Positions 3,973 to 15,884 of a DNA stretch of 24,000 bases are shown one piece after another. The position numbers and the translations under genes were made by a program. The notes below the pieces were generated by a model. That model saw only the letters and a list, made by a program, of their open reading frames with translations, did no database searches and was not told where the DNA came from. How positions within the stretch are numbered: the stretch's first letter is position 1; each line of letters opens with the position of its first letter. The stretch is from an uncultured Alphaproteobacteria bacterium (GTDB lineage: Bacteria > Pseudomonadota > Alphaproteobacteria > Rhizobiales > Kaistiaceae), in NCBI GenBank assembly GCA_963775235.1, contig CAVZHY010000006.1, forward strand, positions 321,695 through 345,694, written 5' to 3'.

Positions 3973-5302
3973 ATGCACCTTTCGCGCTACTTCCTGCCGA
4001 TCCTTCGAGAAACGCCCAAGGAAGCCGAGATCGTTTCCCATCGGTTGATGCTGCGAGCCGGGATGATTCGCCAGCAGGCTGCCGGCATCTATTCCTGGTT
4101 GCCTCTTGGCCAACGCGTCCTTGCCAGGATCGGGACAATCGTTCGAGAGGAGCAAGACCGGGCAGGCGCCATCGAGATTCTCGATGCCCACAATTCAGCC
4201 GGCGGACCTGTGGCGAGAAAGTGGGCGCTATGACGACTACGGCAAGGAGATGCTGCGCATCGCCGACCGGCACGAGCGCGACATGCTGTTCGGCCCGACC
4301 AACGAAGAGATGGTAACGGACATCGTGCGCGCATATGTCACGTCGTATCGGGCGCTGCCGCTCAATCTTTATCACATCCAATGGAAATTCCGCGACGAAG
4401 TGCGACCTCGTTTCGGCATCATGCGCGGTCGTGAATTCCTGATGAAGGATGCCTATTCGTTCGATGTCGACCAAGCGTCTGCCATGGTTGCCTACAACAA
4501 GATGTTCGTTGCGTATTTGAGGACTTTCGCGCGGATGGGCCTCACGGCTATTCCGATGCGGGCGGAAACGGGACCGATCGGCGGCGACCTGAGTCACGAA
4601 TTCCTCGTCCTTGCCGAGACCGGCGAATTGGGAGTTTACTGCGACAAGGCGATTCTCGATGCGGCGGTGCCCGGTGAAGATGTCGACTACGACGCCGACT
4701 TGGGGCCGATTATCGAACCGTGGACATCTTATTATGCAGCGACCGAGGACGTGCACGAGGTCGCTCGTTTCGAACGAGAAGTGCCGGCGGAGCGGCAACT
4801 GGCGACGCGCGGTATCGAGGTCGGGCAGATATTCTATTTCGGCACCAAGTATTCGGTGCCTATGAAAGCAACGGTGTCGGGCGCGGACGGCACAGACAAG
4901 GCGGTCCATGGCGGTTCGTATGGCATCGGTGTGTCACGTTTGGTTGGCGCCATCATCGAGGCGAGCCACGATGAGGCCGGGATCATATGGCCGGACAGCG
5001 TGGCCCCGTTTGAAGTTGGGCTGATCAATCTCAAGGTCGGCGATCGCGCGGTTGATGCTGCTGCGCTCGACCTATACGTGCGTCTCAATAACGCCGGAAT
5101 TTCAGTGCTTTACGATGACCTCGATCAGCGGGCTGGTGCCAAGTTCGCGACCATGGACCTGATCGGGCTGCCCTGGCAGGTGATCATTGGACCCAAAGGG
5201 CTGGAGCGCGGCGAGGTCGAGATCAAGCGTCGGGCGACCGGGGCGCGGGAGGCGCTGAGCCTCGATGGAGTGCTGAACCGCATGGGCGACAGAAAGCGGT
5301 AA
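3973..5302 (+). pseudogene. proS: prolyl-tRNA synthetase (ProRS, short alphaproteobacterial type); reading frame broken by an apparent 1-nt insertion near 4183
   Basis: The N-terminal part starts at the ATG at 3973 ([46 protein letters not shown]...AGAIEIL) and runs into a stop at 4231-4233. Homology continues in the +1 frame from 4184 ([26 protein letters not shown]...). The total of 1330 nt equals 443 codons plus 1 nt. Confidence 0.9.
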
Positions 5303-5307
5303 GCAAA

Positions 5308-6576
5308 ATGGCGGTTCCCGTCGGTACCAGACCCTTTGCCCGATTCGAGTGGATGATTGCCGGGCGGTACCTGCGCTCGCGCCGTCGTGAGGCTTTCATC
5401 TCGGTGATCGCCAGCTTCTCATTTATCGGCATCATGCTGGGCGTTGCCACGCTGATCATCGTCATGGCGGTGATGAATGGGTTCCGCGCCGAACTGATAA
5501 ACAAGATCCTGGGCCTTAACGGTCATCTGATTTTGCAGGCCACGGACACCAAACTGACCGACTATGAGCCGGTGGCGGCGCGCATCGCGCAGGTGCCGGG
5601 CGTGCGCGCCGCGATCCCTTTGGTAGAGGGACAGGCGCTGGCAAGCGGCCAGAATTCGTCAAGTGGCGTGCTGGTTCGCGGTCTGCGTCAGGAGGACCTG
5701 CCCAAGGTTCCCGGCATCTACAACAACGTGCGACTGGGGACACTCGTCGACTTCGACAAATCCGGCGGGGTTGCGATCGGCTCCCGTTTGGCGACCGATC
5801 TCGGCCTTACCATAGGGTCACGCCTGACGCTTGTGCAGCCGCGCGGCACCGTTACGCCTCTGGGCGTCACGCCGAGGATAAAGTCCTATCCGATCGTGGC
5901 GATCTTCGAGATCGGCATGTCCGAGTATGACTCCACGTTCGTCATTCTGCCGTTCGCAGAGGCGCAGATTTATTTCAATCTGGAGGATGAGGCGAGTGCG
6001 GTCGAGATATACCTTGATGACGCCGATTTAGTGGATCGTCTGCGACCGGCGATCGAGCAGGCTGCCGACCGCCAGGTGTTGCTGACCGATTGGCAACAGC
6101 GCAACATGACATTTTTCTCGGCGCTGGAGGTCGAGCGCAACGTCATGTTCCTGATCCTGACTTTGATCGTGTTGGTTGCCGCCCTCAACATCATTTCCGG
6201 CCTCACCATGCTGGTCAAAGACAAAGGCCATGACATCGCCATCCTGAGGACGATGGGGGCGACGCGCGGCACCATCATGCGGGTGTTCTTCATCACCGGT
6301 GCGTCGATCGGCACCGTGGGCACGCTGGCGGGCTTCCTGCTTGGCGTGGTGATCAGTCTCAACATTGAATCAATCCGCCAATTCCTGTCGCAGTTGACGC
6401 AGACTGAGCTTTTCTCGCCGGAGCTTTACTTCCTGAGCCAGTTACCGGCGGACTTGGACGTTCGGGAGACGCTGACCGTCATCATCATGGCCCTGACGCT
6501 GTCGTTTCTGGCGACGCTCTATCCGGCATGGCGGGCGGCTCGTCTCGACCCGGTCGACGCGTTGCGCTACGAATGA
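5308..6576 (+). CDS. lolC: lipoprotein-releasing ABC transporter permease (LolC/LolE family, MacB/FtsX-type)
   Basis: 422 aa. An N-terminal TM helix is followed by a large periplasmic domain and three C-terminal TM helices. The protein ends [13 protein letters not shown]. Its stop overlaps the start of the lolD ATPase gene. Confidence 0.88.
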
Positions 6577-7346
6577 GCTTGCAACCCAAACGATCGGCCA
6601 ACGCGCCGCGCCGTCCGGTCCTGCGGCTCGCCAAGGTCGAGCGGCACTATGGCGACGCCAACGGACGGATCACGGTGCTCGATGGCGCCGATCTCGCGAT
6701 CTATCCGGGGGAGATGGTGGCGTTGGTAGCGCCGTCAGGTGCCGGCAAATCGACGCTGTTGCAGATCGCCGGCCTGCTCGAGCATCCGGACTCGGGCGAT
6801 GTGGTTGTCGCTGGACGCGCGTGCGCCGGGCTCGCGGATGCCGAGCGAACGGCAATCCGCCGGCTCCAGATCGGGTTCGTCTATCAGTTCCACCACTTGT
6901 TGCCGGAATTCACGGCGCTGGAAAACGTGATGATGCCGCAGCTCATCCGCGGCATGAATCGCGGCGAGGCGAAGCGGCGGTCGGTGCAGCTTCTCGCCTA
7001 CATGCGCGTCAAGGAACGGGCGAGCCATCGGCCGCCGGAGCTCTCCGGCGGTGAGCAGCAACGGGTGGCGATCGCGCGGGCGGTCGCCAACGCGCCGCGC
7101 CTTTTGCTCGCCGACGAGCCAACCGGCAACCTCGATCCCCACACCGCCGGCTTCGTCTTCGACGGCCTGATCAGGCTGGTGCGGGCGTCGAAGCTGGCGG
7201 CGCTGATTGCGACGCATAATCACGACCTGGCGGCCAGGATGGACCGGCGGATCACCCTCCGCGAGGGCAAGGTGATCGAGCTGGACTGGCCAAGATCGGC
7301 GACGCGGAAGAGCGTCGTCAGCGACCGGGACGAGGCCACCGGCTAG
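6573..7346 (+). CDS. lolD: lipoprotein-releasing ABC transporter ATP-binding protein
   Basis: The ORF was trimmed to the ATG at 6573, which forms an ATGA overlap with the lolC stop. It has Walker A (APSGAGKST), the ABC signature ([14 protein letters not shown]) and Walker B ([12 protein letters not shown]). Confidence 0.9.
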
Positions 7347-7383
7347 CGCCGAAAAGCGAGGATTCCCTTGGGTTCAGGGCGGA

Positions 7384-7412
7384 TTGACAGGAGAACAAAC
7401 AGAGAACATAAT
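7384..7412 (+). promoter_or_regulatory. sigma70-type promoter, TTGACA-N17-CATAAT
   Basis: The -35 TTGACA is at 7384-7389. A 17-nt spacer covers 7390-7406. The -10 CATAAT is at 7407-7412. It lies in the lolD-dnaE spacer, 36 nt upstream of a small ORF with a Shine-Dalgarno sequence. Confidence 0.6.
7393..7407 (+). promoter_or_regulatory. LexA operator (alphaproteobacterial SOS box, GAAC-N7-GAAC direct repeat) inside the promoter spacer
   Basis: The sequence is GAAC AAACAGA GAAC, with GAAC at 7393-7396 and at 7404-7407. It matches the GTTC-N7-GTTC / GAAC-N7-GAAC operator described for Rhodobacter, Rhizobium and Caulobacter LexA. It overlaps the spacer and the -10 element, a position that would repress transcription. 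Confidence 0.6.
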
Positions 7413-7447
7413 CCGGCGGACAGCTACCGGAAAAGGGGATTTTGTTC

Positions 7448-7546
7448 ATGCGTTACCTGGTCCGCGACGCGGCCGCGCTCGTCGCCATCGGTGCCTTCAT
7501 TGCCATGATTGCCCTGTTGTCGGAAGGGTTGCGGGCCCTGGTGTGA
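7448..7546 (+). CDS. small hydrophobic peptide, 32 aa (MRYLVRDAAALVAIGAFIAMIALLSEGLRALV); candidate SOS-induced membrane peptide
   Basis: The ATG at 7448 is preceded by AAAAGGGGA (GGGGA at 7435-7439, 8-nt spacing). The stop TGA is at 7544-7546. The peptide has a basic N-terminus and one predicted TM helix of about 17 residues. It is too short for the supplied ORF track. It lies downstream of the LexA-box promoter. Confidence 0.45.
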   Translation: MRYLVRDAAALVAIGAFIAMIALLSEGLRALV

Positions 7547-7652
7547 GGCCTGTTGCGGTCGCAGCGGCGCCTGCTGTGGATGGCTGCCCGGATATGTGGA
7601 CACCGGGGGCGCCCATCGCCGACACTTGCCGCGTCAGGGAGAGAGCGGAATC

Positions 7653-10600
7653 GTGAGTCGCACCACCCGTCCGGCCGGGTTTGTCCATCTGAGAGTCCAT
7701 TCGGCCTATTCGCTGCTGGAGGGCGCGCTGCCGGTCAAGCGGCTCGCCGCACTCGCCGCCGCCGACCAGATGCCGGCGCTCGGCATCGCCGACACCGGCA
7801 ATCTTTTCGGCGCGCTCGAGTTCGCTACCACGATTGCGGAGAAGGGCATCCAGCCGATCATCGGCTGCCAGGTGGCCCTCGATTGCGGCGATGGACCGGA
7901 AGCGGCGGCGCCGGGGGCCGCACCGCGCAAGGACCTCGCCGACGTCGTGCTGATGGCGGCCAGCGAGGCGGGGTACTGGAACCTGGTTCGGCTGGTGTCC
8001 GAATTGTTCATGGAAGCGGAAGCGGCGACGCGGCCGCACGTCATGATCGCGCGCCTGGCCGAACTTGCCGGCGGGCTGATCGCGCTTACAGGCGGTCCGG
8101 GCGGGCCGATCGACCGGGCGATCGTGGCGGGGCAGGGCGAGCGCGCCGGCGAGCGCCTCGACCGGTTGAGCGGCATCTTCGGCGACCGGCTCTACGTCGA
8201 GCTCCAGCGCCACGGCCTTGCGGCCGAAAAGGCGGCGGAGCCGGTGCTCATCGATCTTGCCTACAGGCGCGGCCTGCCGCTGGTGGCGACAAACGAGGCC
8301 TTCTTCGCCACCCGCGAAGACTACGAGGCCCACGACGCGCTGATCGCGCTGGCCGAAGGTTCGGTAATCGCCGACGACAACCGCAGGCGGCTTTCGCCCG
8401 AACACTATTTCAAGTCGCGCAACGAGATGGCCGCACTGTTCGCGGGCGTCCCTGAGGCGCCCGAGAACACGCTCGAGGTCGCCATGCGCTGCGCGTGGTG
8501 GCCGCGCGTCTGCAAGCCGATCCTGCCGCGCTTCGCGGAGAACAACGACGGCGACGCCGAAGCGGTTGAGGCCGAGATGCTGGCCGAGGCGGCGCGGGCC
8601 GGCCTGAAACAGCGGCTTACGGTGCACGGGCTCGCGCCGGGTCTCAGCGAGGAAGATTACAACAAGCGCCTGGAATACGAGCTTGGCGTCATCCGGGACA
8701 TGAAATATCCCGGCTATTTCCTGATCGTCGCCGACTTCATCCAGTGGGCCAAGCGGCAGGGCATCCCTGTCGGGCCGGGCCGCGGCTCCGGCGCGGGCTC
8801 GGTGGTTGCATGGTCGCTCACCATCACCGACCTCGATCCGCTGCGCTTCAACCTGATCTTCGAGCGCTTCCTCAATCCCGAACGCGTGTCGATGCCGGAC
8901 TTCGACGTCGACTTCTGCCAGAACCGGCGTGACGAGGTCATCCGCTACGTCGAGCAGAAGTACGGCGCCGACCACGTCGCCCAGATCATCACCTTCGGGA
9001 CCTTGCAGGCGCGCGCGGTGCTGCGCGATGTCGGCCGGGTGCTGCAGATGCCTTACGGGCAAGTCGATCGCCTCGCCAAGATGGTGCCGCAGAACCCCGC
9101 CAACCCGGTGAAGCTCGAACGCGCAATCGCCGACGATCCCCGCTTCGCCACGGAACGTGAGGCCGACGCCACGGTCGACCGCTTGCTGATCATCGCCCAG
9201 AAACTCGAGGGCCTCTATCGCCACGCATCGACCCATGCGGCGGGCATCGTCATCGGCAACCGTCCGCTCATCGAGCTGGTGCCGCTTTACCGCGATCCGC
9301 GTTCGGGCATGCGGGTCAGCCAGTTCAACATGAAGTGGGTGGAGCAGGCGGGCCTGGTGAAGTTCGACTTCCTCGGCCTGAGGACGCTGACGGTGCTCGA
9401 CAAGGCGGTGAAGCTCGTCCGCCAGCGCGGGATCGATGTCGATCTCTCCAGAATCCCGCTCGATGATTCAAAAAGTTATGAGCCGCTGGCGCGCGGCGAA
9501 ACGGTTGGCGTGTTCCAACTGGAGTCGGGCGGCATGCGGCGCGCGGTCATCGACATGCGGCCCGACCGTTTCGACGACCTGATCGCCCTGGTGGCCCTCT
9601 ATCGGCCGGGGCCGATGGCGAACATACCGACCTACTGCCTGCGCAAGCACGGACAGGAGCCGGTGGAATACCTGCACCCGCTGCTCGAACCGATCCTCAA
9701 GGATACGTTCGGCATCATCACGTACCAGGAGCAGGTGCAGCAGATCGCGCGGGACATGGCGGGCTATACGCTCGCCGAGGCCGATCTGCTGCGTCGCGCG
9801 ATGGGCAAGAAGATCAAGTCCGAGATGGACGCCCAGCGCGACCGCTTCCTGACGGGCGCCACCGACCGCGGCATCAACGGGAGCACGGCGAGTTCGATTT
9901 TCGACGCGTGCGCGAAGTTCGCCGAGTACGGCTTCAACAAGTCGCACTCGGCGCCGTATGCGCTGATCACCTATCAGACGGCCTACATGAAGGCCAACTT
10001 CCCCGTGGAGTTCATGGCCGCATCGCTGACGCTGGAGACCGGCAACACCGACAAGATCGCCGAGTTCCGTCGCGAGGCGCTGCGGCTCGGCATCCCGGTC
10101 GAGGCGCCATCGGTCAACCGGTCGGGCGTCGAGTTCGACGTAACGGAGGGGCGCATCCTCTATTCGCTGGCGGCGCTGAAGGGCGTCGGCGCGCAGGCGG
10201 TCGAGCACCTTGTGGAGGTGCGCGGCGAAGCGCCTTTCCGCGACGTCGCCGACTTCGCCCGGCGCATCAATCCCCGGATCATGAACAAGCGCGTGCTTGA
10301 AAGCCTGGTCGCCGCCGGCGCGCTGGACGAACTTGGGCCCGACCGCGCGCGGCTGACGGCCGGTGTCGATCGCATCATGGCCATGGCCGCGCGCGTCCAC
10401 GATACCGTCACGGTCGGGCAGGCAGATATGTTCGGCGCCATCGAAGAGCGCCAGCCGCTGTTGCTGCCGGTGGTGGAACCGTGGCTGGCGGCGGAAAAGC
10501 TCACACGCGAGTACGCGGCGGTCGGCTTCTACCTTTCGGCCCATCCACTCGACGAGTATGGCGCCGTGCTGCAGAAGATGCGGGTGCAAAGCTGGGCCGA

Positions 10601-11105
10601 ATTTTCCGAATCGGTTCGCAACGGCGGCACGGCCGGGCGGCTTGCCGGCACGGTGACCGGCCGGCAGGAGCGGCGCATCCGCTCCGGCAACCGCATGGGG
10701 ATCGTGCAGCTCTCCGACCCCACCGGCTCATACGAGGCGGTGCTCTTTTCCGAGGGACTATCGGAGTATCGCGAACTCCTGGAACCCGGCCGCTCGGTAG
10801 TGGTGCTGGTGGCCGCGGAGGAACGACCGGAAGGGATCAGCGTGCGGATCCAGTCGGTCGAGTCCCTCGATTCTGTGATGGCAGGATTGAAGCAAATCCG
10901 GGTGTTCGTGCGCGATGCCGGACCGCTTGCGAGCGTCGCCAAGCACCTCGGCGCGCGCGGCGAGGGCGAGGCGAGCCTCATCCTCTTGCTTGACGAAGGC
11001 CGCCGCGAGATCGAAATGCGCCTGCCCGGGCGCCATCCGGTGACGCCGCAGGTGGCCAGCGCGCTGAGGGCCGTCAAAGGGGTCGTGCAGGTCGACCTCG
11101 TGTGA
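7653..11105 (+). CDS. dnaE: DNA polymerase III subunit alpha (replicative DnaE)
   Basis: The ORF 7509-11105 was trimmed to the GTG at 7653, which follows GGGAGAGAGCGG. The protein begins VSRTTRPAGFVHLRVHSAYSLLEGA (PHP domain). It has GYFLIVADFI, PGRGSGAGS and PDFDVDF motifs and an OB-fold tail. Length is about 1150 aa. Confidence 0.95.
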   Translation: MSRTTRPAGFVHLRVHSAYSLLEGALPVKRLAALAAADQMPALGIADTGNLFGALEFATTIAEKGIQPIIGCQVALDCGDGPEAAAPGAAPRKDLADVVLMAASEAGYWNLVRLVSELFMEAEAATRPHVMIARLAELAGGLIALTGGPGGPIDRAIVAGQGERAGERLDRLSGIFGDRLYVELQRHGLAAEKAAEPVLIDLAYRRGLPLVATNEAFFATREDYEAHDALIALAEGSVIADDNRRRLSPEHYFKSRNEMAALFAGVPEAPENTLEVAMRCAWWPRVCKPILPRFAENNDGDAEAVEAEMLAEAARAGLKQRLTVHGLAPGLSEEDYNKRLEYELGVIRDMKYPGYFLIVADFIQWAKRQGIPVGPGRGSGAGSVVAWSLTITDLDPLRFNLIFERFLNPERVSMPDFDVDFCQNRRDEVIRYVEQKYGADHVAQIITFGTLQARAVLRDVGRVLQMPYGQVDRLAKMVPQNPANPVKLERAIADDPRFATEREADATVDRLLIIAQKLEGLYRHASTHAAGIVIGNRPLIELVPLYRDPRSGMRVSQFNMKWVEQAGLVKFDFLGLRTLTVLDKAVKLVRQRGIDVDLSRIPLDDSKSYEPLARGETVGVFQLESGGMRRAVIDMRPDRFDDLIALVALYRPGPMANIPTYCLRKHGQEPVEYLHPLLEPILKDTFGIITYQEQVQQIARDMAGYTLAEADLLRRAMGKKIKSEMDAQRDRFLTGATDRGINGSTASSIFDACAKFAEYGFNKSHSAPYALITYQTAYMKANFPVEFMAASLTLETGNTDKIAEFRREALRLGIPVEAPSVNRSGVEFDVTEGRILYSLAALKGVGAQAVEHLVEVRGEAPFRDVADFARRINPRIMNKRVLESLVAAGALDELGPDRARLTAGVDRIMAMAARVHDTVTVGQADMFGAIEERQPLLLPVVEPWLAAEKLTREYAAVGFYLSAHPLDEYGAVLQKMRVQSWAEFSESVRNGGTAGRLAGTVTGRQERRIRSGNRMGIVQLSDPTGSYEAVLFSEGLSEYRELLEPGRSVVVLVAAEERPEGISVRIQSVESLDSVMAGLKQIRVFVRDAGPLASVAKHLGARGEGEASLILLLDEGRREIEMRLPGRHPVTPQVASALRAVKGVVQVDLV

Positions 11106-11111
11106 GCGGGC

Positions 11112-11138
11112 ATGCGACGAGGGTCGTGCGTGTTTTCG
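11112..11138 (+). terminator. weak candidate intrinsic terminator after dnaE
   Basis: CATGCGAC-GAGG-GTCGTGCG is followed by TGTTTTC. The stem has about 6-7 pairs including two G-U pairs and a mismatch, and only four Ts follow. Confidence 0.3.
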
Positions 11139-11492
11139 GCCCTTCGTCAACGGAGTGCACAGCGCTTGCCTTTCCCCGGTGCGGCACACGGTGGTGCACC
11201 CAGACCCGGGGCCCAATCGACCCGTCACAATGAGCCCCGGTTCAGCAGCGCACCACTTCCGTGCTGCGCTGCGCCCGAGACACTTGGCTGCTCAAACGCC
11301 CCAGGTCAGGAGGTCGGCTGTTCGGCTTTGCGCAATTTCGAGTGGCATGCGCGGCCGACACTGGTCGGCCGATCCGAAGGCGCCTAATTTTCGCCAACTC
11401 ATCGCGATTGCGGAGAAGCGTGGCATCGCGCATCGTACGGCGCCGAGCCAGGGGCCGGCGGTGACCGCCCAAGAACCTCAGGAGACGTTCGC

Positions 11493-12773
11493 ATGTTCAT
11501 CTCTTTCTTCCCGCGCCCCAGGCTGTTTTTCATCTCCGCCATGGTGTGGACGGCGATCGTCGTCGCTGTCTGGTACCTGTTCGGCGCCGACATGGCCGGT
11601 GCGTTCGGCGTTCCGATGTCGCCTGAGGGCGTGGAACCCGTAATCGGCGTGCAGGTCTTCTGGACCCCGGAATTTCTGCTCTTCTATGCGTATTTCGGCG
11701 TCGCGGTCGCCCTGTTCGCGGTCTTCTGGCATTTCTATGCCCCCCACCCCTGGGAAAACTGGTCGATCCTCGGCTCGGCGCTGATCATGTTCACGACCTA
11801 CTTCCAGGTCCAGGTGAGCGTCGCGGTCAATGCATGGTACGGACCGTTCTACGACATGATCCAAGCGGCGCTGGGCAAGACCCGCGTCGTGACGACCGGA
11901 GAATTCGTCGGTCTGCTCCTGACCTTTGCCGGAATCGCCTTCGTTGCGGTGGTGGTTGGCGTTCTCACCCGCTTCTTCGTCAGCCACTACATCTTCCGCT
12001 GGCGCACGGCGATGAACAACTTCTACATGGAGAACTGGCAGCGGCTGAGGACCATCGAGGGCGCTTCGCAGCGCGTCCAGGAAGACACGATGCGGTTTTC
12101 GTCGACGCTGGAAATATTGGGCGTCAGCCTCGTTGATTCGGTCATGACGTTGTTTGCCTTCCTGCCGGTGCTCGTGCACCTTTCGCAAAACGTCGCCGGT
12201 CTGCCGCTGATCGGCCAGGTGCCCAATGCCCTGGTTTGGGTGGCGATCGTCTGGTCCCTGTTCGGGACGGGATTCCTGGCGCTGCTCGGCATACGCCTGC
12301 CGGGACTGGAATTCCGGAACCAGCGGGTGGAGGCGGCGTACCGCAAGGAACTGGTCTACGGCGAGGACGACGCGGCCCGGGCGCAGCCGCCGACGGTGGC
12401 CGAACTGTTCAGCGATGTGCGCCGCAACTATTTCCGCATCTATTTCAACTACATGTATTTCAATGTCGGCCGCATCGTGTACCTGCAAACCGACACCATC
12501 ATCCCGTACGTTGTGTTGATGCCATCGATCCTGGCCGCCACGATCACACTCGGCATCATGAACCAGATCCTCAACGCCTTCGACCAGGTGCGCGGCTCCT
12601 TCCAGTACCTTGTCAATTCATGGACGACGATCATCGACCTGATCTCCATCCAGAAGCGGCTGAAGGCGTTCGAGTCGACGCTGTACCACCACCCGCTCAA
12701 CCCGATCGAGAAAGAGGTAGAATCCGCGGCGCAGGCGACGCTGCGGACCAGGGAGGTCGCTTCCGGCGGCTAG
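11493..12773 (+). CDS. bacA: SbmA/BacA family peptide transporter (inner membrane)
   Basis: 426 aa, colinear from memory with E. coli SbmA and Sinorhizobium BacA. Shared motifs are MFxSFFPxP at the N-terminus, [51 protein letters not shown] and [11 protein letters not shown]. An AGGAG Shine-Dalgarno sequence lies 7 nt upstream. Confidence 0.9.
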
Positions 12774-12873
12774 TTCGACTTTTTGCGAAGCCGATCTCCG
12801 GATTGGGCCTCAAGGGAGGTTGGCCATCGGGCGAACCCACGGTCGGGAACCCGGACAGGCCGGCTTTGGTGCC

Positions 12874-12902
12874 TTGCGTTCCGGCAGATGTCCCCATATA
12901 AG
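12874..12902 (+). promoter_or_regulatory. possible promoter for rpsB-tsf (TTGCGT-N17-TATAAG)
   Basis: TTGCGT is at 12874-12879 and TATAAG at 12897-12902, separated by a 17-nt spacer, about 130 nt upstream of rpsB. This is a pattern match only. Confidence 0.25.
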
Positions 12903-13031
12903 CCCCGTCATCTCACACGCGGGGCCGGGCTCGCGGGCCAGATTGGCCTGCGATCCCACCGGTGCCCGAAAGGGCTTGTGGCTTGGCCACGTCCCCCGCG
13001 GCGGCAGAACCGGTGAAGGAGACAGGTAGTC

Positions 13032-14129
13032 ATGGCACTGCCCGATTTTACCATGCGCCAGCTGCTGGAGGCCGGCGTCCATTTCGGCCACCAGAAGCAC
13101 CGCTGGAACCCGAAAATGACGCCGTATCTCTACGGCGTGCGCAATAACATCCACATCATCGACCTCGCCCAGACGGTTCCGATGCTTTATCGGGCGCTGC
13201 AGGTGGTGAGCGATACGGTCGCCGGCGGCGGCCGCATCCTTTTCGTCGGCACCAAACGCCAGGCGGCCGAGCCGCTGACGGCGGCGGCGAAGCGGTCGGC
13301 CCAGTATTACGTCAACGCCCGCTGGCTCGGCGGCATGCTGACCAACTGGAAGACGATCTCGCGATCGATCCAGCGACTGCGCGAGCTGGAGCAACTGCTT
13401 GTCGGCGAAGCGCAGGGCCTGACCAAGAAAGAACGGCTGACGCTGACGCGCGAGCGGGACAAGCTGGAGAAGGCTCTCGGCGGCATCAAGGACATGGGCG
13501 GGGTCCCCGACCTCCTGTTCGTCATCGACACCAACAAGGAGGCGATCGCCATCCAGGAGGCCAACCGGCTCAACATCCCGGTCGCGGCGATCGTCGATTC
13601 CAATTGCGACCCTGACCACATCACATTCCCGATCCCCGGCAACGATGACGCCGGCCGGGCGATCACGCTCTACTGCGACCTGATCGCCAAGGCGGCAATC
13701 GACGGCATCTCGCGCGGCCAGGGCGCGGCCGGCATCGACATCGGCGCGCAGGAAGAGGTGCAGGAACCGGCGATCCTCGAGGCGGCGCCTTCGGTCGCGG
13801 CCGACTCCGTCGGCGAGGAGGTCAGCATGGAGGCGGCCGAGGCGCTGGAGCCGCAGGCGCGGCGCGCTGGTGGCGCTGCATCGGTGGCGGAGCCGGTCGA
13901 GCCGCTGTTCGCCACACCGATGGGATCGGCCGACGACCTCAAGAAGATCACCGGTGTCGGCCCAGTGCTGGAAAAGAAGCTCAATGCGCTCGGCATCACC
14001 CGGTTCGACCAGATCGCCGAGCTCAGCGATGAAGACATCGCCAGGATCGACATGGCCCTCAACTTCAGGGGTCGCATCAGCCGCGACGACTGGATCGGCC
14101 AGGCGCGCAGCCTGACGGTCGGCGCCTGA
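13032..14129 (+). CDS. rpsB: 30S ribosomal protein S2 with a long C-terminal extension (365 aa)
   Basis: An AAGGAG Shine-Dalgarno sequence precedes the start. The N-terminus [29 protein letters not shown] and the S2 core reach to about residue 255 (...[17 protein letters not shown]). An acidic, Ala-rich linker and a [22 protein letters not shown] module follow. Confidence 0.93.
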
Positions 14130-14171
14130 GGGCGCCGCCGCGAGCCACACTTCACCGAAGGGATTAGGGCA

Positions 14172-15104
14172 ATGACCGTTTCCGCCGCCATGGTCAAGGA
14201 GCTGCGCGACAAGACCGGCGCCGGCATGATGGACTGCAAGTCGGCGCTGACGGAGACCTCCGGCGACATCGAGGCCGCGGTCGACTGGCTGCGGACGAAG
14301 GGTCTCGCCAAGGCGGCGAAAAAGGCCGGCCGCGTCGCCGCGGAGGGCCTCATTGCCATCGCCGGCGGCGGCACGCGCGCCGTCATGGTCGAGGTCAACT
14401 CGGAGACCGACTTCGTCGCCCGCAATCTCGACTTCCAGACGCTGGTGCGCGGGGTCGCGGAGGCGGCGCTGGGCACCGACGGGTCGCTGGAGGCGGTGCT
14501 TGCCGCTCGGATGCCGGGCGGCGCCGGCGACGTCGACAGCGCGATCAAATCGGCGATCGCCACCATCGGCGAGAACATCACGCTCCGCCGCGTGGCGATG
14601 GTCTCCGTCGGCAGCGGCGTCGTCGGCACCTATGTCCACGGCGCGGTGGCGCCAGGGCTCGGCAAGATTGGCGTGCTGGTCGGCCTGGAATCGACCGGTG
14701 CCGCGGGCAAGCTGGAGCAGATCGGCAAGCAGGTGGCGATGCACATCGCCGCGGCGAGCCCGCTTGCCGTGCGCCAGGACGAGCTCGACCAGGCGGTGGT
14801 GGAGCGCGAGCGGGCTATCTACGCCGAACAGGCGCGGGAATCCGGCAAGCCGGAAGGCGTCATCGACAAGATGGTCGAGGGTCGGCTGCGCAAGTTCTAC
14901 GAGGAGGCGGTGCTGTTGGCGCAGGCCTTTGTCGTCGACACCGAGAAGACGGTGGAGAAGGCGGTGCAGGCAGCGGCGACCGAGGCCGGGGCTGATATCA
15001 GTGTGACCGCGTTCGCGTGCTTCCGGCTGGGCGAGGGCATCGAGAAGCCGGAGACGGACTTCGCAGCCGAGGTAGCGGCCGCGGCGGGCACCGACCAAAA
15101 GTGA
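14172..15104 (+). CDS. tsf: translation elongation factor Ts
   Basis: 310 aa. It has the N-terminal UBA-like motif [19 protein letters not shown]. It follows rpsB directly, as in the conserved rpsB-tsf operon. Confidence 0.95.
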
Positions 15105-15158
15105 CAGGCCGGAGGTCATCGTGTATCCGGATGGCCGATTTCCACTGATCGAGTTGGG

Positions 15159-15884
15159 ATGATGGAGCCGACGCGCCGCTTCCAGAGGGTGGTCCTCAAG
15201 CTTTCCGGCGAGGCGCTCCTCGGCGATCAGGCGTTCGGCATCGACACCAAGATGGTCGAGCGGATCGCCGGCGAGATCGGCGAGGCGGTCGCGCTCGGCG
15301 TCAAGGTCGCGGTGGTTCCGGGCGGCGGCAACATCTTCCGCGGCATGGCGATCGCCCAGGCCGGCGGCAGCCGGGTCGCCGGCGATCACATGGGCATGCT
15401 CGCGACCGTGATGAACGCGATCGCGCTGCACGAGGGGCTGGAATCCAGAGGCATCGAAGCGCGGGTGTTCTCGGCGGTGCCGATGCCGACGATCTGCGAG
15501 ACGTTCACCTACCAGCGCGCCGAGCAGGCATTCGAGCAGGGGCGTGTGCTGCTGCTCGCCGGGGGCACGGGAAACCCGTTCTTCACCACCGATTCCGGGG
15601 CGGCGCTCCGGGCCGCCGAGCTCGGCTGCGACGCACTGTTCAAGGGCACCCAGGTCGATGGCGTCTACTCCGCCGATCCCAAGCGCGACAAAAACGCCCG
15701 GCGTTTCGAGCGGTTAAGCCACGCGGACGTGCTGGCCAAGGGTCTCCAGGTGATGGATGCCGCCGCAGTCGCGCTTGCCCGCGATAACCGTATTCCGGTA
15801 ATCGTCTTTTCGATCCTGCAAGCTGGCGCTTTCGTTGATATTCTGAAGGGGCAGGGCCGGGCAACGGTAGTCGCCGACGCCTGA
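15159..15884 (+). CDS. pyrH: UMP kinase
   Basis: 241 aa, with tandem ATG codons at 15159 and 15162. It has [19 protein letters not shown] and [11 protein letters not shown]-like motifs. It follows tsf in the conserved order. Confidence 0.93.

Follow-up and report, generated by a model that had tools for sequence, protein, structure and literature searches.

What is encoded in the short region immediately upstream of dnaE in an uncultured Alphaproteobacteria bacterium of the family Kaistiaceae, and does this region belong to a known SOS system? We examined these questions in a stretch of 24,000 nucleotides (nt) that we call the window (GenBank assembly GCA_963775235.1, contig CAVZHY010000006.1, positions 321,695 to 345,694 of the forward strand). 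A previous reading of this DNA, made from the letters and their translated open reading frames (ORFs) and referred to here as the sequence-only reading, proposed that positions 7384-7546 contain a LexA-box promoter driving a 32-amino acid (aa) membrane peptide that is either a division inhibitor or a toxin-like effector. Our analysis indicates that this region is probably the promoter and coding sequence of a distant sidA orthologue at its ancestral position. It would encode an SOS-induced inhibitor of cell division acting on FtsW/FtsI/FtsN, with partial read-through into dnaE.

The elements that make up this region are as follows:

7384-7389, + strand: -35 hexamer TTGACA, identified by sequence inspection.
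Between the -35 and -10 hexamers, + strand: promoter spacer of 17 nt.
7393-7407, + strand: putative LexA operator GAACAAACAGAGAAC, a direct repeat GAAC-N7-GAAC (GTTC-N7-GTTC) that occupies the spacer and the first base of the -10 hexamer.
7407-7412, + strand: -10 hexamer CATAAT.
7435-7439, + strand: Shine-Dalgarno sequence GGGGA, 8 nt ahead of ATG 7448.
7448-7546, + strand: SidA-like peptide gene, a conserved ORF encoding the 32 aa MRYLVRDAAALVAIGAFIAMIALLSEGLRALV, followed by a stop codon.

The sequence-only reading had described the TTGACA-N17-CATAAT promoter at 7384-7412, the GAAC-N7-GAAC repeat across its spacer and -10 hexamer, and the ORF with its Shine-Dalgarno sequence and 8-nt spacing, and we found each of these at the positions and with the sequence that it gave. 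The -35 and -10 hexamers match the sigma-70 consensus at 11 of 12 positions. No other promoter-like site occurs on either strand in the interval 7000-8000, where shuffled sequences give 0.1 such sites. Standard sigma-70 geometry would place the start of transcription near 7419 and result in a 5' untranslated region (UTR) of approximately 28 nt. Folding of this UTR revealed no structure beyond that of shuffled controls, with a minimum free energy of -3.7 kcal/mol that is weaker than the shuffles. A minus-strand hairpin detected at 7412-7431 is not kept in the nearest relative, locus L095.

The encoded peptide has a short basic and acidic N-terminus (R2, R6, D7) followed by one hydrophobic helix, for which the highest 15-residue Kyte-Doolittle mean is 2.83. 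AlphaFold, supplied with the family alignment, modeled one uninterrupted helix over residues 2-31 with a predicted local distance difference test score (pLDDT) of 94.7. The peptide is therefore predicted to be a protein with a single transmembrane helix and of the SidA size class.

For comparison with this ORF we took the 80 genome loci that encode the DnaE N-termini closest to that of the window. All are from Hyphomicrobiales and include no Rhizobiaceae, Brucellaceae, or members of other alphaproteobacterial orders; the closest DnaE match is from a Bauldia sp. metagenome-assembled genome (72%). An ORF of the same character lies between the LexA box and dnaE in 74 of 81 loci, counting the window, and is exactly 32 codons long in 68 of these 74. 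In the related loci it begins with ATG, with a Shine-Dalgarno sequence of the GGAGG or GGGGAG type 5-9 nt upstream, and the distance from the peptide gene to dnaE ranges from 37 to 500 nt. Entropy in the family alignment is 1.13, 0.75, and 1.49 at codon positions 1, 2, and 3. Stop codons occur in the +1 frame in 57 of 68 sequences and in one of the three reverse frames in 50 of 68, and in the remaining frames in 19-24 of 68. The sequence-only reading had suggested looking for synonymous-biased conservation and this is what we observed. The raw ratio of nonsynonymous to synonymous differences (pN/pS) is 0.59 in frame versus 0.98 and 1.39 in the other two frames. Likewise, the peptide is 88% identical to its closest relative (L095), from which it differs by nine synonymous and four conservative codon changes (V/I, A/V, L/V, L/V). 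These patterns show that the peptide gene is real and under purifying selection.

Family members are abundant in public databases. At E≤0.001 the family profile retrieved 569 representatives from 1.84 billion proteins; a collection of 5.8 billion yielded 877 clusters. The query alignment was headed by mis-called versions of the peptide that are 40-42 aa long. The database entries for the family are unnamed or labeled 'hypothetical'. Many of them carry false N-terminal extensions of 40-100 aa, and the peptide from Roseibium album/Labrenzia (MFHIARDFAAFASLVFFCTTLAVWGDVLLAAS) is named 'diacylglycerol kinase' in some NCBI entries, apparently a misannotation. That standard ORF calling misses this gene held only in part: many pipelines do call it, as a 'hypothetical protein', and the exact window peptide is already in the public NCBI/ENA protein collection without a name. 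Pfam contains nothing that matches either the window peptide or SidA, even at E≤10. Across the family, the conserved positions are an acidic residue at 7 or 8, A10-L11, F17, and W24.

GTTC-N7-GTTC is the established LexA motif of alphaproteobacteria (PMC3323433), as the sequence-only reading had taken it to be. The exact repeat GAAC-N7-GAAC occurs upstream of dnaE in 67 of the 80 related loci. When one mismatch was allowed, a box was present within 160 nt upstream of the peptide ATG in 72 of the 73 peptide-bearing relatives, compared with approximately 5.6% expected by chance. In most related loci a TTGAC[ATCG] hexamer lies 2-4 nt ahead of the box. ATA.T or TATGTT comes immediately after the box, and the median distance from box to ATG is 38 nt. 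Between the window and L095, the GAAC half-sites and the -35 and -10 hexamers are identical, and the N7 segment and the 5' UTR have diverged. A second, inverted GTTC-N7-GTTC is present in 56 loci, mostly from Xanthobacteraceae and usually offset by 18 nt. Only one box is present in the window, in Bauldia, and in Roseibium.

The sequence-only reading had also considered that related genomes might keep the box and lose the ORF. Five loci contain no peptide gene (L011, L024 from Methylocella, L069, L077 from Ca. Tokpelaia, and L079), and in none of these does a LexA box occur in the 1 kb upstream of dnaE. The box and the peptide are absent together (Fisher p = 2.8e-7), and the whole module appears to have been lost as a unit, or never gained, in these five Hyphomicrobiales lineages. 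Earlier comparative genomics listed dnaE itself as a LexA-regulated gene in alphaproteobacteria (PMC3323433). Because the box travels with the peptide, the operator belongs first to the peptide gene and only secondarily to dnaE.

Is this peptide related to SidA, the SOS-induced division inhibitor of Caulobacter? When the Hyphomicrobiales alignment was compared with a SidA alignment using hhalign, the probability was 83.6% with P = 8e-6 over 25 columns. We also searched the family hidden Markov model (HMM) against 4,899 small ORFs of 20-70 aa taken from six frames of all fetched loci. All 11 complete SidA ORFs ranked right after the family (13-18 bits, E 3.5e-4 to 1.5e-2), and the next match below them scored 5.4 bits. 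The reverse search, from SidA to the same small ORFs, behaved in the same way, and the two groups are reciprocal next-best HMM hits. In an ungapped alignment from M1, the window peptide and SidA share R6, D/E7, A10, L11, V12, F17, and M20. A joint profile recovered both the named SidA proteins (Caulobacter, Phenylobacterium, Caulobacteraceae) and the unnamed 32-aa peptides with overlapping scores of 42-55 bits. Bridging peptides were also found, and identity to the window peptide is 37% for P0431 and 34% for P0444. The gene for P0431, a 30-aa peptide, lies upstream of dnaE and is itself preceded by TTGACA and two degenerate boxes. These results support detectable homology to SidA by sensitive methods that is remote but specific.

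On the contig that encodes P0431 we also noted two copies of a motif of approximately 26 nt (ACCGTAAAATACGGTG[G]ATTTACGGTG) between the SidA-like gene and dnaE (L094, 2690-2790).

The genes that surround the peptide gene in the window are as follows:

4106-5302, upstream of lolC/E: proS (Pfam tRNA-synt_2b).
5308-6576, upstream of lolD: lolC/E (Pfam MacB_PCD/FtsX).
6528-7346, + strand: gene for a lolD-type ATP-binding cassette ATPase, the upstream neighbor (Pfam ABC_tran); the listed start of this ORF is probably too early.
7547-7652, + strand: spacer of 106 nt between the peptide gene and dnaE, ending with the Shine-Dalgarno sequence of dnaE (GGGAGAGAG).
7653-11105, + strand: dnaE, encoding the replicative DNA polymerase III alpha subunit, with start codon GTG 7653 (Pfam).

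The ORF that begins at GTG 7653 encodes 1150 aa with PHP, DNA_pol3_alpha, finger, HHH, and OB domains and is therefore dnaE1. This agrees with the sequence-only reading, which had placed the start of dnaE 106 nt beyond the peptide gene with no obvious terminator between them. We found no terminator-like site on the + strand in this interval. Among the related loci, even a weak terminator-like site occurs in the spacer in only 5 of 73 and is absent in 68. The fold of the spacer is no better than that of shuffled sequence (z = +1.2), and a hairpin just after the peptide stop codon is not conserved, L095 having a 12-nt deletion there. The distal half of the spacer (approximately 7573-7652) is well conserved relative to L095, a pair in which the 5' UTR of the peptide gene has diverged. 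This distal half may be dnaE's own promoter or regulatory region, and dnaE must in any case also be expressed independently of LexA. It holds two TGTGGA motifs (CTGTGGATGG, ATGTGGACAC) that resemble partial DnaA boxes.

The wider gene content around the peptide is chromosomal housekeeping, with RNase J, proS, lolC/E, and lolD on the upstream side. Downstream, the order is bacA/sbmA, an 873-aa minus-strand ORF, pyrH, frr, uppS, cdsA, dxr, rseP, bamA, and fabZ. No Pfam domain was found at E≤0.001 in the 873-aa ORF (12810-15431, - strand), which is flanked by bacA/sbmA and the pyrH-frr-uppS-cdsA-dxr-rseP-bamA cluster. In seven Xanthobacteraceae loci (L007, L009, L010, L021, L022, L038, and L053) there is a second conserved small ORF or block, 'MDSAA(R/C)DPASSPLAESP.ASI', approximately 20-90 nt upstream of the start of the dnaE match. 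It ends right at the dnaE start and could be a conserved element or an upstream ORF (uORF) distinct from the SidA-like peptide.

The sequence-only reading had suggested that Caulobacter sidA also neighbors dnaE, and this proved right. According to the supplements of PMC12700426, sidA (ccna_02004; CC_1927) adjoins dnaE (ccna_02003; CC_1926), and the two are treated there as one LexA-bound transcription unit of 3557 bp. The same supplements place two LexA boxes 49 and 15 bp from the sidA coding sequence, and the LexA chromatin immunoprecipitation peak at sidA (2008 rpm) is among the highest that they list. After 40 min of mitomycin C they give a log2 fold change of 3.42 for sidA (approximately 10.7-fold) and 1.18 for dnaE (approximately 2.3-fold); the value for dnaE is 1.45 in a lexA sidA double deletion.

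Using the two published LexA boxes as a pattern, we retrieved 12 Caulobacter-type metagenome loci. In L082-L092 the arrangement is GAACATCTTGTGAAC, 19 nt, GAACAAAACAAGAAA, 15 nt that include GGAGG, and ATG. This is followed by a sidA ORF of 29 codons, and dnaE starts 23-36 nt past its stop codon. Exact look-up of the encoded peptides returned 'cell division inhibitor SidA', SIDA_CAUVN, and CC_1927. In one of these loci (L090) the upstream side contains proS, lolC/E, and lolD, together with an inserted nucleoside hydrolase gene on the opposite strand; the extended gene order thus matches that of the window. This shared layout of proS-lolCE-lolD, boxes, sidA, and dnaE bears out the suggestion that the locus is a conserved syntenic one. 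We observed in L082-L092 that the 19-nt gap between the reported sidA boxes holds a third, degenerate direct repeat (GAACAAAACCGGAAT), and the Caulobacter sidA promoter may carry three tandem operators with a spacing of 16-18 nt.

The proposal that the promoter also feeds dnaE gains support from the Caulobacter unit. By this comparison, dnaE in the window is probably co-transcribed in part from the LexA-box promoter. In Caulobacter, SidA binds FtsW and FtsN in two-hybrid assays, mutations in ftsW or ftsI suppress its effect, and Z-rings stay intact (PMC4211646).

Several points weigh against this assignment. The curated SidA model (NCBIfam NF033228, div_inhib_SidA, an equivalog with a cutoff of 35 bits) gave no hit to the window peptide at E≤10. 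The model scored Caulobacter SidA at 72.3 bits and a Xanthobacteraceae member of the family at only 13.5 bits (E 0.052). Thus, the window peptide is outside the SidA equivalog family as curated. It is identical to SidA at 7 of 29 positions (24%), and the similarity lies largely in the hydrophobic helix, where composition inflates scores. The C-terminus of the window peptide is three residues longer and more polar (SEGLRALV), and position 24 is L, a position occupied by W in more than 90% of the family. Considered on its own, the LexA box is statistically unremarkable for 24 kb. GAAC-N7-GAAC has one match in the window versus 0.77 expected, and at least one match occurred in 54 of 100 shuffles. 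The significance of the box comes from its location inside a near-consensus promoter in a 300-nt intergenic gap and from its conservation across genomes. Only 37 nt without a terminator separate lolD from the promoter, and read-through could give some expression that is independent of LexA. We infer expression, LexA binding, and phenotype in this organism by comparison, and its lexA lies outside the window.

On balance, the purifying selection, the conserved architecture of the LexA box, the adjacency of sidA and dnaE in Caulobacter, and the remote homology to SidA together support the view of the sequence-only reading that this is an SOS-controlled, single-helix peptide of the SidA type. In our view the window gene is a remote, positional orthologue of sidA: it falls outside the curated equivalog family but inside the same kind of system.

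Based on these comparisons, we propose the following mechanism. In an undamaged cell, LexA would occupy the GAAC-N7-GAAC operator of a strong sigma-70-type promoter and, because the operator fills the promoter spacer, bound LexA would be expected to block RNA polymerase. Upon DNA damage, RecA-stimulated self-cleavage of LexA would free the promoter. The short, unstructured leader and good ribosome-binding site would then allow rapid translation of the 32-residue peptide, which is predicted to enter the inner membrane as a single helix. Its homology with SidA makes the late divisome proteins FtsW/FtsI/FtsN the most likely binding partners, and it would keep septal wall synthesis inactive. Division would thereby be delayed until repair is complete without dismantling of the FtsZ ring. 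There is no terminator after the peptide gene, so some transcripts would run on into dnaE; the induction in Caulobacter of 2.3-fold for dnaE versus 10.7-fold for sidA also suggests that part of the transcript reads into dnaE. As in Caulobacter, this read-through would result in a modest SOS boost of the replicative polymerase above its basal expression.

We weighed this explanation against four others. One is a chance ORF in a GC-rich intergenic region beside a LexA-regulated dnaE promoter. High-GC genomes do yield many spurious ORFs, and 79 ORFs of at least 25 aa overlap 5000-12000. However, frame, length, start codon, Shine-Dalgarno sequence, and amino acid pattern are kept over 74 loci, and hundreds of relatives exist in databases. 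We consider coincidence to be barely credible and rejected it on the conservation of frame, length, start codon, and Shine-Dalgarno sequence over those loci, together with the off-frame controls. The location of the ORF directly upstream of dnaE, probably on the same transcript and with no terminator between, would also fit a cis-acting leader peptide, that is, a uORF whose translation tunes the transcription or translation of dnaE and whose product is without function. This is highly improbable, since purifying selection acts on the amino acid sequence itself, the length is fixed at 32 codons, and the homologue SidA acts in trans. Translational coupling or attenuation is also hard to reconcile with a spacer to dnaE that ranges from 37 to 500 nt and shows little conservation. 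The spacer fold, no better than shuffled, likewise counts against a leader peptide.

Both remaining alternatives accept an SOS membrane peptide and differ in how it acts. The peptide could be a type I toxin of the TisB/DinQ kind, in which a LexA-induced peptide that is normally restrained by an antisense RNA depolarizes the membrane and leads to dormancy. The size class, the single hydrophobic helix, and the LexA operator are all in line with such a toxin. TisB and DinQ mRNAs have long, structured, processing-dependent leaders, whereas the 5' UTR in the window is about 28 nt and unstructured. Neither is there an opposite-strand promoter-like site in 7000-8000, and the 37 nt from lolD to the -35 hexamer leave no room for a divergent antitoxin RNA. 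A scan of the whole window gave no Rfam family match, though a non-canonical RNA may be present. Probable co-transcription with an essential gene also speaks against a toxin, as do homology and synteny with SidA, which blocks division via FtsW and not by depolarization. The toxin-like effector that the sequence-only reading had offered as its second option has therefore lost ground to the division inhibitor and is, in our estimation, very unlikely. Somewhat less remote, but still unlikely, is that the peptide is a SidA-related SOS membrane peptide with a different target in Hyphomicrobiales, such as another peptidoglycan synthase complex, the polar-growth machinery, or a membrane-associated replication or repair factor. 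The conserved linkage to dnaE would then reflect a role related to replication. Such a change of target would be in keeping with the large divergence from SidA (24% identity and no match to NF033228), with the family's own near-invariant F17 and W24 and longer C-terminus, and with a tight linkage to dnaE across two orders that a pure division role does not explain. On the other hand, the pattern R6-[DE]7-x-x-A-L-V-S/A-...-F17-...-M20 is common to the family and SidA and spans the N-terminal two thirds of both peptides. Moreover, FtsW, FtsI, and FtsN are universal in these bacteria, and nothing in the sequence points to another partner.

The SidA-dnaE SOS module is already known. What is new is a divergent 32-aa member of it in Hyphomicrobiales, and this will not surprise a specialist. 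SidA has so far been treated as a Caulobacter protein, and the curated model that names it recognizes only Caulobacteraceae sequences. Here, counterparts by position and by remote sequence similarity were found in Bauldia, Xanthobacteraceae (Ancylobacter, Rhodoplanes, Pseudolabrys), Roseibium/Labrenzia, and many soil metagenome bins, amounting to hundreds of unannotated SidA-like genes across Hyphomicrobiales. A literature search for SidA homologues returned only an unrelated fungal siderophore enzyme of the same name, and one on rhizobial division inhibitors returned nothing relevant. The peptide is thus a concrete candidate for the SOS division inhibitor of a large order, with no prior description found in the literature. 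The comparison also re-assigns the LexA site that earlier comparative genomics placed upstream of dnaE, chiefly to a small gene overlooked in those analyses. A question raised by this arrangement is why, over a long evolutionary distance, this peptide has remained together with the replicative polymerase in a single SOS-controlled unit. A more far-reaching view is that the 32-aa peptides are an unrecognized, order-wide branch of SidA, that the LexA-controlled operon of peptide plus dnaE is ancestral to at least Caulobacterales and Hyphomicrobiales, and that the linkage is functional, with the peptide and the SOS boost of polymerase forming one module that couples replication restart to a division block; or else that the Hyphomicrobiales branch has a different membrane target. 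We hold this view only tentatively and think that it is rather doubtful.

Among known systems, E. coli SulA is similar in that it causes an SOS-induced division block, but it is a cytoplasmic 18-kDa inhibitor of FtsZ polymerization that has no membrane helix and does not occur in alphaproteobacteria (PMC4211646). B. subtilis YneA, S. aureus SosA, M. tuberculosis ChiZ, C. glutamicum DivS, and Caulobacter DidA are alike in action. In each, damage induces a small membrane protein that arrests septal wall synthesis at a late stage, and FtsZ is not dismantled (PMC4211646, PMC13396833). These proteins have no sequence relationship to the window peptide. They are also larger and carry extracellular domains, for example LysM, and DidA differs further in that it is SOS-independent (activated by DriD) and binds FtsN.

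E. coli TisB (with IstR-1) and DinQ (with AgrB) resemble the window peptide as LexA-repressed, hydrophobic inner-membrane peptides of approximately 27-30 aa. They have no sequence relationship to it. Unlike them, the window gene is linked to dnaE and has a short unstructured leader, no antisense or antitoxin RNA locus was found at the window locus, and the nearest relative of the window peptide is a divisome inhibitor rather than a pore-former.

The closest system is the sidA-dnaE unit of Caulobacter. The window peptide differs from SidA in its length (32 versus 29 aa), in its low identity, and in not being detected by the curated HMM; its function is a predicted one. The locus differs in having one operator inside the promoter spacer versus two or three tandem boxes, a spacer to dnaE of 106 nt versus 23-36 nt, and a directly adjacent lolD versus an intervening opposite-strand nucleoside hydrolase gene. 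In both, a LexA-box promoter precedes a gene for a single-helix inner-membrane peptide of approximately 30 aa, predicted as such in the window, with dnaE directly downstream on the same strand and no terminator ahead of it. They also have in common the proS-lolCE-lolD neighborhood and the N-terminal pattern M-x-x-x-x-R-[DE]-x-x-A-L-V-...-F17-...-M20.

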